Positions 44,251-53,082 of a stretch of 64,000 nt of DNA are shown piece by piece. The notes under the pieces were generated by a model, which made no database searches, had not been told where the DNA came from, and saw only the letters and a program-made list of their open reading frames with translations. The DNA comes from Bacteroidia bacterium (GTDB taxonomy: Bacteria > Bacteroidota > Bacteroidia > UKL13-3), in assembly GCA_041675505.1 (NCBI GenBank), contig JBAYTR010000015.1:4972-68971 (forward strand). The letters run 5' to 3'. The position numbers and the translations under genes were made by a program. The number at the start of each line of letters is the position of its first letter. The first letter of the stretch is position 1.

Positions 44251-45642
44251 ATGAAATCAGCTAATCGGGTAAAACCAATTTTTCTATTATCACTTTTTCT
44301 CAGTGTATTTGCGGCACCCATTTATGCGCAGCAGCATAATGATTCACTTGTGGTGAAGCAACTGTTTAATGAAGCACTAAATAAAGGTAAAGCATACGAA
44401 AACCTCAGGTATTTATGTAAAAATATCGGGCACCGCTTGAGTGGTAGCGCAAATGCACAAGCTGCTGTTGAATACACCAAACGATTAATGACAGAGTATG
44501 GGTTTGATAAAGTATACCTGCAACCTGTTTCAGTTCCTAAGTGGGTAAGAGGTGAAAAAGAACAAGCCAAAGCGATACTTTCAAACGGGAAAAGTGTACC
44601 CTTGAGAATACTTGCCTTAGGCAATTCAAAGGGCACCGGACCAGAGGGAGTCAAAGCACAGGTTGTAGAAGTAAAAACACTTAAGCAGTTGGATTCGTTG
44701 GGTGAAAAAGAGATTAAGGGCAAGATTGTATTTTTTAACCGACCAATGAATCCTTCTTTCATTACTACTTTTGAGGCGTATGGAGATGCAGTTGACCAAC
44801 GCTCTATAGGGGCGAGTATGGCGGCAAAGTACGGTGCTGTTGCGGTAATCGTAAGGTCCATGACTCTTGCTCATGATACTTTTCCGCACACGGGGGCATT
44901 GCGGTACATTGATTCCCTGCCTCAAATTCCTGCAGTTGCTATCAGCACAAATGATGCGGATGTTCTAAGCATTTTTGTTAAAAAGGATAAAGGAGTGGAG
45001 GTGTATTACAAAACACTTTGCGAAATGCAGGGCGAGGTAATGTCATACAACGTGGTGGGAGAAATAAAGGGAAGCAAATACCCCGAAGAAGTCATAGCAG
45101 TTGGCGGTCACCTCGACTCTTGGGATGTGGGAGAAGGGGCACATGATGACGGAGCCGGCTGTATACAATCAATTGAAGCATTGCGCCTATTCAGGTCGCT
45201 GGGTATAAAACCTGCGCGCACTATAAGGTGTGTTATGTTTATGAACGAGGAAAATGGTTTAAGGGGTGGTAAGGCATACGATGAGCAAACCAAGGGAGAA
45301 AAGCATATTGCGGCAATTGAATCAGACCGAGGAGGGTTCACACCCAGAGGATTTTCAATTGATACGGATAATGCAGCGCACGTTCAAAAGATTAAAAGCT
45401 GGAAACAAACACTGAGTGCTTTTGGTTTAGATAAAATAGAAGCAGGAGGGGGAGGAGCCGATATAAGTTTTCTGAAGCAACGCGGGTGCACATTAATTGG
45501 TTTTGTTCCTGACTCGCAACGGTATTTTGATTTTCATCATGCGTCAACAGATGTATTTGAAGCAGTAAACAAAAGAGAACTGGAGATGGGCGCTGCCTCA
45601 ATGGCTGCGCTTATCTGGTTACTTAGCGAGAACGGGCTCTAA
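44251..45642 (+). CDS. M28 family zinc peptidase (aminopeptidase) with a signal peptide.
   Basis: Signal peptide. HLDSWD..GAHDDGAG..NEENG.. is the M28 metal-binding pattern (H, D, E, D, H). Confidence 0.8.
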   Translation: MKSANRVKPIFLLSLFLSVFAAPIYAQQHNDSLVVKQLFNEALNKGKAYENLRYLCKNIGHRLSGSANAQAAVEYTKRLMTEYGFDKVYLQPVSVPKWVRGEKEQAKAILSNGKSVPLRILALGNSKGTGPEGVKAQVVEVKTLKQLDSLGEKEIKGKIVFFNRPMNPSFITTFEAYGDAVDQRSIGASMAAKYGAVAVIVRSMTLAHDTFPHTGALRYIDSLPQIPAVAISTNDADVLSIFVKKDKGVEVYYKTLCEMQGEVMSYNVVGEIKGSKYPEEVIAVGGHLDSWDVGEGAHDDGAGCIQSIEALRLFRSLGIKPARTIRCVMFMNEENGLRGGKAYDEQTKGEKHIAAIESDRGGFTPRGFSIDTDNAAHVQKIKSWKQTLSAFGLDKIEAGGGGADISFLKQRGCTLIGFVPDSQRYFDFHHASTDVFEAVNKRELEMGAASMAALIWLLSENGL

Positions 45643-49294: not shown

Positions 49295-50017
49295 TTATTT
49301 TGCAGCGGCTCTTTTTAAAGTGAGATCAATATTTACACAGGCCTTTCCCTTTGGTCCTTCAGCAAATATCTGTTGTATCGGTTTATTCAGCAAATTCACC
49401 ACCTCTTGCCGCTGTTCTTCCGCTGCAGTGCTTAATAAAGGCACATCATTTATAACCAGCGAGGTGGCCACCAGGTCAAGTTTCGGGTAATAGAATGTAC
49501 CCTCTTTACCTATAGAAGTTTCAATCACAAATCCATAGGTTTTGGCCATAGCCACAGTGTAGGGCGCACATAAAACAAACAGGGAGCCCATGTCAAGCAT
49601 TCGTGCCAAAGTTACTCCCATGCGGGTAAGTAAAATGCTCAAGCCATGGCCGGCTATGTCTTTGGAGTTCCATAGTCCGCATAATTCTCCGGTTTTATTT
49701 TTGGCATATTCTGCCACCAGCGGGTATATCTTGGTATCTACTATTCCTATGGCTTCTTCAATAGGTAAGGGTTGGGTGTCATTGGCAATATGTACTCTCT
49801 CCCCACCATAAGTATGTTTTCCATCTTCAGATTCTACTATGATAACAAAAACTCCCGGATTATAAAACCAGTCGTTTTTTGCTGAGGTAACTTTGGTTAC
49901 GCCATAGTCACGTAAAACATTCGCATGTCCTTCCGCAAAACGCCTGCACGATTCAACATCATCAGGTGCTCTGAATACTCTTACGCGTATGTTTTTTTCC
50001 CTTTTCTGATCTTTCAA
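49295..50017 (-). CDS. GNAT-fold acyltransferase-like protein (240 aa) of unknown specificity.
   Basis: Motif A-like KDIAGHGLSILLTRMGV and motif B-like TVAMAKTYGFV. It has a 4-bp ATGA overlap with the upstream E1-like gene. Confidence 0.5.
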   Translation of the reverse strand: MKDQKREKNIRVRVFRAPDDVESCRRFAEGHANVLRDYGVTKVTSAKNDWFYNPGVFVIIVESEDGKHTYGGERVHIANDTQPLPIEEAIGIVDTKIYPLVAEYAKNKTGELCGLWNSKDIAGHGLSILLTRMGVTLARMLDMGSLFVLCAPYTVAMAKTYGFVIETSIGKEGTFYYPKLDLVATSLVINDVPLLSTAAEEQRQEVVNLLNKPIQQIFAEGPKGKACVNIDLTLKRAAAK

Positions 50018-51150
50018 TGGCGATTTTGTTTGATGGCTAGGTCAATATCAAAATATAATCTGCCAGACAGTGTTGCTTGTTTTAAAAGTATTTGCCTGCA
50101 CGCTTCAGTAGTTATTGCTCCTCCGAGGAATACTGCTGAAGAAAGCTGAGGCCAGGAAACAATAGTTTTACCGTATTCCTTCATGGAGAATTTTAATCTT
50201 TCCGAGATATTCTCCGCACTGATTATTTTCATCACTATCGGAAGTTTTTCCTGTGGTGTGAGGTTGCTCAACTCCTGATAAGAAATATCTCCGACCAAAC
50301 CATGCAGAACGGGTAATGTATTGTCCAGATCAAATCGTTCAATGTCCAGCATTCCGCGGTCATTGGTATCCATTACTACCGGTATTCCATGTTCACGTGC
50401 TTTGAGTCTGCACAACAATTTAATATCGAGGCTATCACATTCATCTACCAATATATCCAATTTTCCCCCGTCACACAAAAACGATTCTATATTGTCTTCG
50501 GTAACCCCGTTTTTAAATATTTTGAGTTGAATAAAGGGGTCCAGCTCTGATATTCTTCTTTGTGCAATAACCCATTTGGGCAGGCCTATTTCATGTATAC
50601 CGGCCTCCAGTCTGTTCATGTTGCTCAGGTCGAGCGAATCAAAATCAGCAATTCTGATTTCACTGCACACACGTTCCATGGCCAAACAAACGGCAATGGT
50701 CATTCCTACCGATAAGCCAATTACACCTATCTTTTTTGATTGCAATTCGACTTGTTCTTCCCGGGTGATTTTATACAGATTTCTGCTGGTTCGCAGCTCC
50801 ATATATTCTTCCTCATCAAGCAAATGAACCAGTTTCTTGCTCCAGGGGTAATATACCCATACCCCATATTCCTGTAGTGAGGTACCTTTAAGAAGGTCTG
50901 AAAGAAAATGTTCTTTATTTAATTGAACAGGAGGAATGTGTGGATTACGAATTCGTTGCAACTCAAAAAGCTGTTCTTCTATAGTGTCATATACTTCGCA
51001 ATCCGTTACAGATTGAAAGAGTTCTGACAAGCGAGCCTTGTCCTGTTCCTTGCTCAAACGGAAAAATTGAGGGGTATCCTCAGTAGAAAATACACTATCC
51101 TTTGCCGCACCTCTTTTCAGACAGACGGTAATATCGTCCGACATTTTCAT
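50014..51150 (-). CDS. E1-like (ThiF/MoeB/HesA fold) adenylyltransferase with a ~125 aa N-terminal extension.
   Basis: Rossmann nucleotide loop with the Mg-binding Asp and the SNxNR arginine-finger region (IGVIGLSVGMTIA..IRIADFDSLDLSNMNRL), then a Vxxxd.vDxxD...Ln..c motif. It lacks the C-terminal CxxC zinc motifs of MoeB/ThiF. Confidence 0.7.
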   Translation of the reverse strand: MKMSDDITVCLKRGAAKDSVFSTEDTPQFFRLSKEQDKARLSELFQSVTDCEVYDTIEEQLFELQRIRNPHIPPVQLNKEHFLSDLLKGTSLQEYGVWVYYPWSKKLVHLLDEEEYMELRTSRNLYKITREEQVELQSKKIGVIGLSVGMTIAVCLAMERVCSEIRIADFDSLDLSNMNRLEAGIHEIGLPKWVIAQRRISELDPFIQLKIFKNGVTEDNIESFLCDGGKLDILVDECDSLDIKLLCRLKAREHGIPVVMDTNDRGMLDIERFDLDNTLPVLHGLVGDISYQELSNLTPQEKLPIVMKIISAENISERLKFSMKEYGKTIVSWPQLSSAVFLGGAITTEACRQILLKQATLSGRLYFDIDLAIKQNRH

Positions 51151-51258
51151 TCGCTTAATTTTTCAGCAAATTAGAAATTATTCGATGAATTATTGTATGA
51201 AGGCCATGAATATTTGAAATTTTAGTAAAAAATTGTTTTAAGACCTTTAATTTTGTGT

Positions 51259-51732: not shown

Positions 51733-53082
51733 TTAATCCTTTTGATTTACCCATTCGGCTATGTTGTTTATAACGTAGTTCGGAACGTTAGCTCTTATTT
51801 CATAGTCCTTGGGTGAGCTTTTCTCAGGGCTTTCTGTGAATACATGATTCAGATTCGGGTATAAAATAAGTTGCACGTTTCGCCAGATTTTTTTCAATTT
51901 GTTTTCCCAAATGTTAAAATCTTTTATTGTTACCTGATAGTCGCGGGCACCTTGCAGCAGCAGAATTTTTTTATTGAGTTTGCCTGCTGTAGCTACCTGA
52001 TTGTAGTGCATTAAATCTACCCAGTAAGCTGTGGGTAAGCCCAGTGGCAACTCATCCGGTGATGCCAAAGCCAGCCGAACACTGTCTTTGAGTATGGCTG
52101 TACTTGCTTTGTATTTATTCAACGTTTCTTCCTCCTCAGTGCTTAAGGTGTCATTCAGCATAAAAATATACTGGAGTTGTTCTTCCACCAAAACTTCCAG
52201 CGGGCGGGCATTGGCTGCCATCATAATAATACCCTTCACTTTTTTATTGTTTGTGGCTATACGCGGGGCACACATACCGCCCAAGCTGTGGCCAAGTACA
52301 TAAATTTCTTTTTTGTTAATACCTTTTTGAATGCTCATCAACTCAACTGCTTCTTTAGCATCATTTATTACTTCTTCATCAAGGTTGAGCAGTTCAATAT
52401 CATCTACACTTTTACCACCGTATACTTTGGTGCGTTTATCGTATCGGAAAGTGGCTATTCCCTTTGCGGCTAAACCTAAGGCCAGGTCTTTAAAAAGTTT
52501 GGTATTACCCAGTGTTTCATCTTTATCATTGGGGCCCGAGCCATGAACCATAATGACAACGGGAACTTCTTTTGCCGCTACCGGAAGGGTTAGAATACCC
52601 GGCATTTTATATTTACCGTTGACTAAGGTGAGTTTGATTTCCGAATAATTTTTTACGTCAGGAGCATAAGAGGGCCATATATAATCAGCCTTGGGTCTGG
52701 ATGGAATAATCCGAATCATGTTCACATACCCGCTGCTGTCATACGTTAACATCAGCTCGTATGCAGCTTTTCTATACCTGCACAGTTGAAAATAGGTGAT
52801 GTTATCCTGAAACAATTCAACTTCTGGTGAACCAATCGAATCAAGTTCGCCACTTTCGCGTTCTATATTGCTCCATATAAGTCCTAAACGCTTAGCACTT
52901 AATGCGTCTTTCGTTTCCTCATTAAAGGCGGAGTAAACAGAGTCGAACTGATGCAGCAGAAGGTACTGCAGGATACGGGCACTCTTCATTTCCTGTTGCG
53001 CAAAACCAGCACGAGTGAGCAACAAAATGAAAATTACAGTTATGCTTAAACGGATTTTTCTTTTTTGTGTTAATGGTTTCAT
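51733..53082 (-). CDS. Secreted alpha/beta-hydrolase (prolyl-oligopeptidase/dienelactone-hydrolase-like).
   Basis: Signal peptide. Nucleophile elbow GHSLGG, with downstream Asp and His. Confidence 0.75.
   Translation of the reverse strand: MKPLTQKRKIRLSITVIFILLLTRAGFAQQEMKSARILQYLLLHQFDSVYSAFNEETKDALSAKRLGLIWSNIERESGELDSIGSPEVELFQDNITYFQLCRYRKAAYELMLTYDSSGYVNMIRIIPSRPKADYIWPSYAPDVKNYSEIKLTLVNGKYKMPGILTLPVAAKEVPVVIMVHGSGPNDKDETLGNTKLFKDLALGLAAKGIATFRYDKRTKVYGGKSVDDIELLNLDEEVINDAKEAVELMSIQKGINKKEIYVLGHSLGGMCAPRIATNNKKVKGIIMMAANARPLEVLVEEQLQYIFMLNDTLSTEEEETLNKYKASTAILKDSVRLALASPDELPLGLPTAYWVDLMHYNQVATAGKLNKKILLLQGARDYQVTIKDFNIWENKLKKIWRNVQLILYPNLNHVFTESPEKSSPKDYEIRANVPNYVINNIAEWVNQKD

Follow-up and report, generated by a model that had tools for sequence, protein, structure and literature searches.

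The 64-kb stretch of Bacteroidota DNA analysed here as a whole (hereafter, the window) carries an operon on its reverse strand that begins with genes for an E1-like protein and a GNAT-fold protein and continues with a sensor histidine kinase, a hybrid kinase and a stand-alone receiver; a further receiver gene is divergently oriented (Table 1). An initial annotation, made from the letters alone, had reported two same-strand ORFs of 378 aa and 240 aa leading a signal-transduction operon. Both points were confirmed, the genes downstream specifying a 7TMR-DISM kinase followed by a REC-histidine kinase hybrid and then a receiver. These genes are closely spaced, with gaps of 6, 14 and 8 bp along the series from acyltransferase to kinase, hybrid and receiver. 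A scan found no intergenic terminator inside the operon, the sigma-70 consensus used for promoters being unsuited to Bacteroidota, and an Rfam scan of 45.0-53.5 kb returned no RNA family. By Pfam, no receiver of the cluster has a DNA-binding output. The first two genes overlap by 4 bp, as originally described, but the overlap reads TTGA and not ATGA: the E1 stop codon overlaps a TTG start of the acyltransferase gene, and there is no ATG in the 240-aa ORF before residue ~133.

Table 1. Features of the locus, with positions in the window
Feature	Position	Strand	Description
Divergent receiver, 159 aa	51253..51732	+	Response_reg, E 2.8e-18 (Pfam); no DNA-binding domain
Micro-ORF MAFIQ	51193..51207		In the leader upstream of the E1-like gene
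ATTCATCGAAT motif	51180..51190	-	~40 nt upstream of the E1 start
E1-like gene, 378 aa	50014..51150	-	TrzS/Rv1355c-type ThiF-like cyclase, ATP-dependent, without FDO (flavin oxidase) domain; family-specific N-terminal extension ~23-120, adenylation core ~122-375
Acyltransferase gene (P240), 240 aa	49295..50017	-	GNAT fold, unannotated family; predicted N-acyl amino acid synthase
Sensor histidine kinase, 719 aa	47129..49288	-	7TMR-DISMED2 (extracellular), 7TMR-DISM 7TM, HisKA, HATPase (Pfam)
Hybrid kinase, 360 aa	46032..47114	-	Receiver-HisKA-HATPase (Pfam); fourth operon gene
Stand-alone receiver, 134 aa	45619..46023	-	Response_reg, E 4e-12 (Pfam); last operon gene

The E1-like protein and its GNAT-fold partner

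On sequence grounds the 378-aa protein is a member of the Rv1355c/TrzS family and not an orphan. It matched the NCBIfam model NF005901 ('Rv1355c family') with an E of 9.8e-137 and 457 bits, the match beginning at residue 23, spanning profile positions 9-341 of 722 and ending where the FDO domain begins. The score falls slightly short of the 476 set for a full-length match, as the protein has no counterpart to the FDO half of the profile. The N-terminal extension, initially put at ~125 aa and described as of unknown fold, is present at ~120 aa and is part of this family profile. The ThiF domain occupies residues 122-259 (Pfam, E 1.3e-16), and this match agrees with an alignment to TcdA in bearing out the intact ThiF/MoeB-type core that had been read from the letters: the SNMNRL motif (S176-N-M-N-R180) and D236/D239 align to TcdA TNTNRQ and D-x-x-D. 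Since D239 and R180 are also conserved without exception across 36 homologues, the adenylation motif of Asp plus Arg finger appears, from its sequence, to be intact. By the TcdA alignment, the E1 Asp would be the equivalent of TrzS D217. AclA (9egb) was the top structural neighbour of the protein, and superposition on MccB was limited to the core (218 residues).

The models for ThiF, MoeB, TcdA and UbaA scored 27-60 bits on the protein, against cut-offs of 150-650, so that the homology check proposed at the outset places it outside the ThiF/MoeB/TcdA housekeeping clade. Inspection of the sequence found no CxxC motif, in agreement with the zinc knuckle noted earlier as lacking, and a scan of the genes that lie nearby, at 39.7-56.2 kb, turned up no ThiS/MoaD, JAB or E2 domain, which bears out, for those neighbours, the reported lack of a ubiquitin-like, JAB or E2 partner. 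Family scores and gene context thus agree that this is not an enzyme of thiamine, molybdopterin, tRNA or ubiquitin-like housekeeping. PADLOC gave weak E1-E2 matches on the Rossmann region (best E 6e-7); with only these matches and no partner genes among the scanned neighbours, a Bil or Cap2 (CBASS) E1 system was rejected.

The 240-aa protein had no match in Pfam, NCBIfam, PADLOC or PDB sequences, RimI being among the NCBIfam models that failed to match, and the RimI-type housekeeping check raised in the initial annotation therefore came out clear. A 65-sequence profile of the acyltransferase gave marginal GNAT matches only against the PDB. In the predicted structure the fold is that of a GNAT, and the pyrophosphate-binding loop of motif A is present. 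Its closest solved structure is FeeM, followed by the AHL synthases, and this FeeM/AHL-synthase-like fold is the one expected of an N-acyl amino acid synthase adjoining an E1. Judged from the model, the protein resembles N-acyl amino acid synthases and not the detoxifying MccE, and the MccE-like role first considered for it is not upheld. It differs from FeeM, the N-acyl amino acid synthases and the LuxI-type AHL synthases in sequence (8-13% identity), in an extra C-terminal helix plus hairpin of ~50 residues, and in having the motif E-L-C-G instead of E-L-S-R. Assignment as a LuxI-type AHL synthase was rejected: the likeness is one of fold, no Pfam family, those of NAS and AHL synthases included, gave a match even at E up to 10, and a histidine kinase stands in the place of a LuxR partner. 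The family is without a Pfam or NCBIfam model and its named members are called 'hypothetical protein', and would therefore be missed by annotation-based neighbourhood analyses. TIR, LRR or Mrr domains were found fused to distant relatives of the acyltransferase domain, which hints at other roles for the fold.

Conservation of the locus

Across the Bacteroidota, 478 matching stretches were counted in species-representative genomes. Cultured carriers of the locus include Chitinophaga sp. XS-30, Daejeonella oryzae, Pedobacter superstes and Flavihumibacter soli; in the first of these, the orthologues of the two genes lie at about 409.4-411.2 kb of CP043006.1. The functional pairing of an E1 with a GNAT-fold protein that had been suggested for the window is kept in relatives: the two genes are adjacent, in either order, in 66 of 80 related loci, and natural fusions of the two occur (P0216, P0345). 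In another lineage an E1-acyltransferase fusion adjoins an MFS exporter and lacks the kinase.

An orthologue of the 7TMR-DISM kinase directly follows the acyltransferase, or the acyltransferase and a second enzyme, in all 76 of the loci with enough sequence to be assessed, and these span the Chitinophagales, Sphingobacteriales, Flavobacteriales and Cytophagales. The hybrid kinase is syntenic in nearly all related loci, the stand-alone receiver comes after it in most, and an orthologue of the divergent receiver (50-64% identity) flanks the cluster in most. With E1 homologues as the starting point, the kinase arrangement was seen in four of six. E1 homologues of Brevibacillus and Dyadobacter are without the kinase. 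The unannotated neighbours of these two E1 genes gave hhalign probabilities of 3% and 9% against the 240-aa family, which are not significant; a suggestive 'VELSRVAV' motif occurs in the Dyadobacter protein only.

While the kinase and acyltransferase are constant, the second enzyme alternates among loci between an E1, an E1-FDO and a SAM methyltransferase. Among the 80 related loci, 35 have the FDO, a flavin-dependent oxidase of the nitroreductase superfamily, as a fusion with the E1, and about 28 lack it altogether; counted over the 66 related loci having an E1, it is present in 36. CP043006.1 and OZ260100.1 are examples of FDO-less genomes. In the window the E1 ORF does not extend past the cyclase domain, its end lying within the acyltransferase gene, and tblastn found no match to the FDO domain at E up to 0.01 anywhere in the 64 kb. 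Because FDO-fused and FDO-less loci interleave on the acyltransferase tree, the FDO-less loci represent a recurrent, maintained state. The oxidase, to judge from these sequences, turns out to be dispensable and to have been dropped or exchanged repeatedly.

The leader of the E1-like gene contains a short motif, ATTCATCGAAT, that is identical at -40 to -44 in the closest relative (L002, 92% identical) and in three relatives at 54% E1 identity (L003, L008 and L009), despite diverged flanking intergenic DNA. The motif was absent outside the clade of the window, and a leader motif search over all clades gave AT-rich k-mers only. It is a candidate promoter or operator element.

Relation to known oxazolone pathways

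Pathways to N-acyl oxazolones were discovered only in 2020-2025, and experiments have established for OxzB (2020-21), TyzB (2023) and TrzS (2025) that the enzyme uses ATP to cyclise N-acyl amino acids to oxazolones. The nearest counterpart of the window locus is TrzAS (Rv1356c-Rv1355c), the N-acyl tryptazolone pathway of Mycobacterium tuberculosis, in which the TrzS cyclase alone yields a saturated cyclised intermediate (Kleetz et al., JBC 2025, PMC12856293). The match of the window E1 to the Rv1355c profile takes in the entire cyclase half with its N-terminal extension, an operon-linked N-acyltransferase adjoins the cyclase gene, and signalling genes lie nearby, the neighbours of trzAS being c-di-GMP turnover genes. 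The window locus differs in having no FDO domain, and hence no desaturation step, and in drawing its acyltransferase from an unannotated Bacteroidota family. The hosts are also dissimilar: those of TrzAS are mycolic-acid Actinomycetota, whereas the window host is a member of the Bacteroidota with a 7TMR-DISM phosphorelay.

The tyrazolone pathways TyzACB of M. tuberculosis and OxzAB of Pseudoalteromonas rubra (PMC10404671; bioRxiv 10.1101/2020.06.11.147165) share with the window the order predicted for it, an N-acyl amino acid synthase followed by ATP-dependent ThiF-like cyclisation. A model of TyzA finds the same closest solved structures as the window acyltransferase, and the cyclase is a stand-alone protein in the window, as is TyzB. 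In these pathways, however, a flavin oxidase is always present, either separate (TyzC) or fused (OxzB). Kleetz et al. (PMC12856293) assign TrzS to another network subcluster than TyzB and OxzB, and the window enzyme matches the Rv1355c/TrzS family model. The initial proposal of a candidate new kind of modification module does not stand, as N-acyl oxazolone enzymology had already been described; the FDO-less form and the kinase link of these loci appear not to have been described before.

Proposed pathway, alternatives and implications

On balance, we favour the view that the pair constitutes a two-step pathway of the N-acyl-oxazolone type that lacks the usual oxidase and is built into a phosphorelay operon. 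From its fold and context, the 240-aa enzyme would move an acyl group from acyl-CoA or acyl-ACP onto the alpha-amine of a free amino acid, giving an N-acyl amino acid. The 378-aa enzyme, from its family membership, would adenylate the carboxylate of this product with ATP, and attack by the amide oxygen would close a 5(4H)-oxazolone (azlactone) ring with release of AMP. These two steps, acylation and then cyclisation, are probable on the sequence evidence. Desaturation by a flavin oxidase would not follow. With the oxidase absent from both the operon and the window, the oxazolone would therefore remain in its saturated, more reactive form, barring an oxidase encoded at an unlinked site elsewhere in the genome.

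Conserved synteny suggests that the product, as such or after hydrolysis or derivatisation, would be functionally coupled to the co-transcribed kinase, the hybrid kinase and the receivers, most likely as the ligand of the kinase. The locus would then combine signal synthase and sensor in one self-contained system. That the pathway product is the kinase's signal is a real possibility, if one that falls somewhat short of probable, and the signalling reading overall is plausible. The physiological role of oxazolones is a major open question, for which signalling has been proposed by the discovering groups. A precedent for such an architecture is LuxM/LuxN of Vibrio, an acyl-signal synthase paired with a membrane histidine-kinase receptor. 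By analogy, the window also appears to link the synthase of an acylated molecule to a multi-pass sensor kinase and phosphorelay, with a receptor that is not of the cytoplasmic LuxR type; the families differ throughout, however, so that the likeness is of architecture only. A broader proposal, which is tentative and as a whole rather doubtful, is that these loci are a Bacteroidota signalling cassette composed of an N-acyl amino acid synthase, which would make the core of a small acylated signal, a swappable enzyme (ThiF cyclase, ThiF cyclase-oxidase or methyltransferase), which would lend it a lineage-specific 'dialect', and a 7TMR-DISM kinase as receptor. The oxidase-less form of the window would then produce a saturated azlactone or derivative as a short-lived, reactive messenger. 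Saturated 5(4H)-oxazolones readily hydrolyse and racemise. They were undetected in vivo by Kleetz et al. (PMC12856293). For both reasons a stable, diffusible signal of this type is questionable.

The synteny cannot tell a kinase that senses the product from one that merely controls or accompanies its synthesis. It is conceivable, though unlikely, that the same enzymology yields an antimicrobial or a lipid with a role in the envelope or in stress, and that the phosphorelay senses some other cue, such as a carbohydrate bound by the DISMED2 domain of the kinase, and regulates or accompanies production. Oxazolones were first framed as oxidative-stress lipids and are induced by antibiotics, N-acyl tyrosine derivatives are antimicrobial, and both the kinase-less fusion beside an MFS exporter and the kinase-less contexts of Brevibacillus and Dyadobacter would be at home in such a scheme. 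Yet the linkage to the kinase in 76 of 76 loci has survived exchange of the second enzyme and permutation of gene order, a persistence more typical of a synthase-receptor pair, and the cluster has no DNA-binding regulator through which transcription of the enzymes could be driven.

Rather less likely is that the FDO-less E1 makes an acyl-adenylate or azlactone that is not the end product but an activated intermediate, for epimerisation or transfer, leading to N-acyl-D-amino acids after hydrolysis or to acylation of some other nucleophile, for instance a protein, an amine or an alcohol. Azlactones are well known as acyl donors that racemise, and about 28 loci lack the oxidase, which would bring the ring into conjugation and so stabilise it. 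However, the operon offers no conserved candidate for an acceptor or a further transferase, and relatives about 50% identical have the FDO and can be presumed to make the usual unsaturated oxazolones.

Very improbable is a system resembling microcin C, which the initial annotation had taken as the closest known logic, in which the E1 would modify a small ribosomal peptide at its C-terminus and the GNAT protein would be a self-immunity acetyltransferase. MccB/MccE likewise places a GNAT-fold protein beside an adenylating E1-like enzyme that is extended at its N-terminus, but the window enzyme is of another family, its GNAT partner is synthase-like, a small N-acyl amino acid is presumed to be the substrate, and the locus has no conserved precursor peptide. 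The Gln-ended micro-ORF noted at the outset does exist in the leader, but it is not a conserved tiny ORF: it reads MAFTQ in the closest relative and is absent in the three at 54% E1 identity, and no shared sORF was found in the leaders of 48 related loci in which the divergent receiver gene is directly upstream of the E1. It is, on this comparison, a chance feature. The leader check and the family match together largely refute the microcin-C reading. A housekeeping ThiF/MoeB/TcdA enzyme with a RimI-like acetyltransferase, or an E1 of ubiquitin-like conjugation or defence, has next to no probability, for which the generic ThiF match and the weak PADLOC matches might speak, but which is refuted by the low family scores, the lack of CxxC and a gene context of signalling genes.

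In the searchable literature, the related N-acyl tyrosines have been placed in Pseudomonadota, Actinomycetota and Planctomycetota, and no mention was found there of Bacteroidota producers, cyclase-only clusters or a link to a sensor kinase. The loci described here extend the pathway to a large part of the Bacteroidota. To our knowledge, the ligands of 7TMR-DISM kinases are mostly unknown, and the tie to a kinase in every assessable locus makes the question of an oxazolone signal directly testable in the cultured carriers. If the link proves merely regulatory, the result would still be a useful annotation of two widespread gene families that are unannotated or mis-annotated. If the signalling-cassette proposal is true, oxazolones would gain the physiological role that they have been missing, and the Bacteroidota a native system of the autoinducer type.

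Assignment of the E1-like protein and layout of the operon

[quoted passage not shown] In the published pathways, TrzS (Rv1355c) together with the amino-acid N-acyltransferase TrzA (Rv1356c) produces N-acyl tryptazolones (Kleetz et al. 2025, PMC12856293), and the same logic is followed by TyzACB (Grigg et al. 2023, PMC10404671) and OxzAB (bioRxiv 10.1101/2020.06.11.147165). Cyclisation by TrzS requires ATP and Asp217 and precedes desaturation; the cyclase without its oxidase gives a saturated cyclised intermediate (PMC12856293).

Pfam recognised only a generic ThiF domain in E1 (residues 122-259), while the NCBIfam model NF005901, "Rv1355c family protein", matched with an E-value of 9.8e-137 (457 bits), residues 23-375 aligning to profile positions 9-341 of 722. 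Judged by this alignment, E1 is the counterpart of the N-terminal half of Rv1355c. The N-terminal extension, described in the initial annotation as of unknown fold, lies within the alignment and is thus a hallmark of that family. The adenylation core is intact, as had been claimed: in an alignment with TcdA, the Arg finger of SNMNR(180) and the acidic residues D236 and D239 find their counterparts, and R180 and D239 were invariant in 36 stand-alone homologues. Superposition on solved structures covered only the core (about 215-245 residues), leaving the extension outside, and the closest was AclA (PDB 9egb/9egc). AclA is a 250-aa ThiF-type protein of Tenacibaculum discolor (Bacteroidota), solved with substrate in 2025, and its chemistry might bear on the Rv1355c/TrzS family.

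Both minus-strand ORFs, of 378 and 240 aa, were present as annotated, except that their 4-bp overlap is TTGA and not ATGA. The sequence reads ...CGC CAT TGA AAG..., with TTGA shared with the E1 stop codon, so the 240-aa ORF starts at TTG; its frame has no ATG before about residue 133, and the closest homologues (P0002, P0003) start at the same position. Given the short gaps on one strand and the divergent receiver, the locus forms a compact operon of five genes, with one divergent gene as its partner.

Features of the locus and its surroundings in the window
Feature	Position	Strand	Basis
E1-like gene, 378 aa	50014..51150	-	ATG start; ORF listing and raw sequence
Acyltransferase gene, 240 aa	49295..50017	-	TTG start; ORF listing and raw sequence
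7TMR-DISMED2/7TMR-DISM histidine kinase, 719 aa	downstream of acyltransferase, gap 6 nt	-	Pfam
Receiver-HisKA-HATPase hybrid, 360 aa	after kinase, gap 14 nt	-	Pfam
Stand-alone receiver, 134 aa	after hybrid kinase, gap 8 nt	-	Pfam
Receiver protein, 159 aa	102 nt upstream of E1 gene	divergent (+)	Pfam
ATTCATCGAAT, 11-nt element	51180-51190	-	
Secreted alpha/beta hydrolase, 449 aa (DUF3887 and S9/S33-type domain)	51733-53082	-	
PKD-repeat protein with CHU_C type IX secretion sorting domain, 1491 aa	39706-44181	+	
M28 peptidase, after the PKD-repeat protein	44251-45642	+	

The 3' ends of the convergent M28 peptidase and 134-aa receiver genes overlap by 24 nt (45619-45642). In the leader, the MAFIQ micro-ORF pointed out earlier exists but is not conserved in related loci, and no Rfam family was found in the region. 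The element ATTCATCGAAT, about 40 nt upstream of the E1 start, is identical in loci L002, L003, L008 and L009 at -40 to -44, although the E1 proteins are only 54% identical and the intergenic DNA around it has diverged. It was absent from other clades, and may be a promoter or operator specific to the window's own clade. The 449-aa hydrolase gene adjoins the divergent receiver gene and keeps this position in the same four loci, all four of which belong to the oxidase-less clade. The enzyme may act on what the pathway makes, or its position may simply reflect common descent.

The 240-aa acyltransferase

The acyltransferase had no match in Pfam (even with the E-value limit raised to 10), in NCBIfam or PADLOC, or among PDB sequences, and among its 1090 homologues those named by their source are labelled "hypothetical protein". 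An AF2 model from a 36-sequence alignment (pLDDT 91.2, pTM 0.89) had FeeM as its first fold neighbour, followed by the acyl-homoserine-lactone (AHL) synthases RpaI (15.3), LasI (15.2), TofI (14.6), MesI (13.4) and EsaI (12.4), with ordinary GNATs interleaved. FeeM and an AHL synthase are also the closest structural relatives of TyzA (Grigg et al., PMC10404671). The family conserves the A-G-x-G loop of motif A and the strand-4 Glu, and E111 is invariant even at ~30% identity. The proposed GNAT fold was thus borne out by the model's neighbours and the motif A loop, with marginal support from sequence: a 65-member profile matched serotonin N-acetyltransferase over motifs A and B (E 0.017), and Acetyltransf_1 matched one fused homologue (E 0.009). 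The model places the protein with the N-acyl amino acid synthase (NAS) and AHL-synthase-like GNAT-fold proteins, in a family that has no model in current libraries. In distant relatives (P0257, P0278, P0348, P0276) the domain has other fusion partners: TIR, leucine-rich repeats, a winged HTH or an Mrr-type restriction endonuclease domain. Such architectures recall conflict or defence proteins and have no connection with the kinase operon.

Conservation of the locus and absence of the oxidase

A scan with the 240-aa family, using one genome per species, gave 478 matching stretches, and neighbourhoods were counted in the best 80 by tblastn of the window proteins against each locus. All 80 are from Bacteroidota (Chitinophagales, Sphingobacteriales, Cryomorphaceae and other Flavobacteriales, Cytophagaceae). 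The pairing is conserved: E1 adjoins the acyltransferase in 66 of these 80 loci, upstream or, in Sphingobacteriales, downstream, and natural fusions of the two occur (P0216, P0345). P0216 (651 aa; L087 3150-6708) is followed by an MFS transporter and not by a kinase. Among the 80 loci, the 7TMR-DISM kinase follows the acyltransferase, or the acyltransferase and second enzyme, in all 76 long enough to assess, with the hybrid kinase after it in nearly all and a stand-alone receiver in most. L003 and L049, from MAGs titled 'Bifidobacteriaceae' and 'Bifidobacterium', carry the whole locus in its Bacteroidota form, at 51-63% identity to the window; these contigs are probably mis-binned or mis-labelled.

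The 66 loci differed in the flavin oxidase domain (FDO): it is fused in frame to E1 in 35 and separate in one, while 28 have no FDO and an E1 end 0-90 nt from the acyltransferase, like the window; the other two have an unexplained gap of 0.9-1.2 kb. The window's E1 ORF ends exactly where the cyclase domain ends, and tblastn found no FDO-like sequence in the whole 64 kb. P0125 (L085 1617-3329), with a cyclase 75% identical to E1, has only ~185 FDO residues and ends 44 nt from the end of a 3.4-kb contig, which may mean that the oxidase is decaying or that a frameshift or the assembly has produced an artefact. Of the N-acyl dehydrotyrosine producers examined to date, each has both the ThiF and the nitroreductase gene or neither.

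Nine of the 80 loci (L028, L029, L038, L040, L051, L053, L062, L071, L076; Sphingobacteriales or Chitinophagales) have no E1 within 10 kb; instead, a ~260-aa class-I SAM methyltransferase (Methyltransf_25/11, UbiE-like) lies between acyltransferase and kinase, at ~10.8-11.6 kb in each locus. A UbiE-like methyltransferase accompanies the NAS-ThiF-nitroreductase genes of Stieleria. On a neighbour-joining acyltransferase tree, drawn without support values, E1-only, E1-FDO and methyltransferase loci were interleaved, so the second enzyme was repeatedly exchanged or trimmed while acyltransferase and kinase were retained.

Viewed from E1, four of six contexts (Chitinophaga sp. XS-30, Sphingobacterium, Daejeonella oryzae and one uncultured) repeat the order E1, acyltransferase, kinase, hybrid kinase. 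The other two, from Brevibacillus and Dyadobacter, have no 7TMR-DISM kinase nearby and a different unannotated protein upstream. These neighbours, of 261-283 aa, are unrelated (L081 7115-7966; L089 5150-5935, Dyadobacter sp. LJ53). The Dyadobacter one carries "VELSRVAV", a motif typical of NAS and AHL synthases. It lines up with "GELCGLWN" of the acyltransferase, but at an hhalign probability of just 9%; an SDR and an AraC regulator lie downstream. Both E1 homologues are ~53-55% identical to that of the window, and because the Firmicutes protein is as close as Bacteroidota ones, horizontal transfer is suggested for Brevibacillus.

Possible product and role

Computation establishes which family E1 belongs to, how the acyltransferase folds, how the operon is laid out, that an FDO is missing and that the synteny is conserved; the chemistry is inferred from these. 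The acyltransferase would supply an N-acyl amino acid, the carboxylate of which E1 would adenylate, closing a 5(4H)-oxazolone ring; with no desaturation, the product would stay a saturated azlactone. Such compounds are hydrolytically labile, prone to racemisation, and acylating. We hypothesise that the co-encoded 7TMR-DISM kinase senses this product or something derived from it. Alternatively, the phosphorelay may merely regulate or accompany the making of a lipid or antimicrobial, or the azlactone may be an activated intermediate that is epimerised or passed on to a different nucleophile. The microcin-C-type analogy drawn earlier failed on the leader ORF, the structure superposition and the family scores. 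E1 is not a housekeeping ThiF/MoeB/TcdA enzyme, the ThiF, MoeB, TcdA and UbaA models of NCBIfam scoring 27-60 bits against cut-offs of 150-650, and its partner, which no NCBIfam model matched, is not RimI. The reading as a ubiquitin-like or defence E1 fails as well, with no ThiS/MoaD, JAB or E2 domain among the genes scanned at 39.7-56.2 kb.

Four aspects appear undescribed in the searchable literature, outside which most subscription-journal papers lie: that the pathway occurs in Bacteroidota, that its acyltransferase is of an unannotated family, that the oxidase is missing recurrently, leaving cyclase-only clusters, and that the locus is invariably coupled to one specific 7TMR-DISM phosphorelay. 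This coupling makes the question of what oxazolones do, which the literature itself raises, directly testable.
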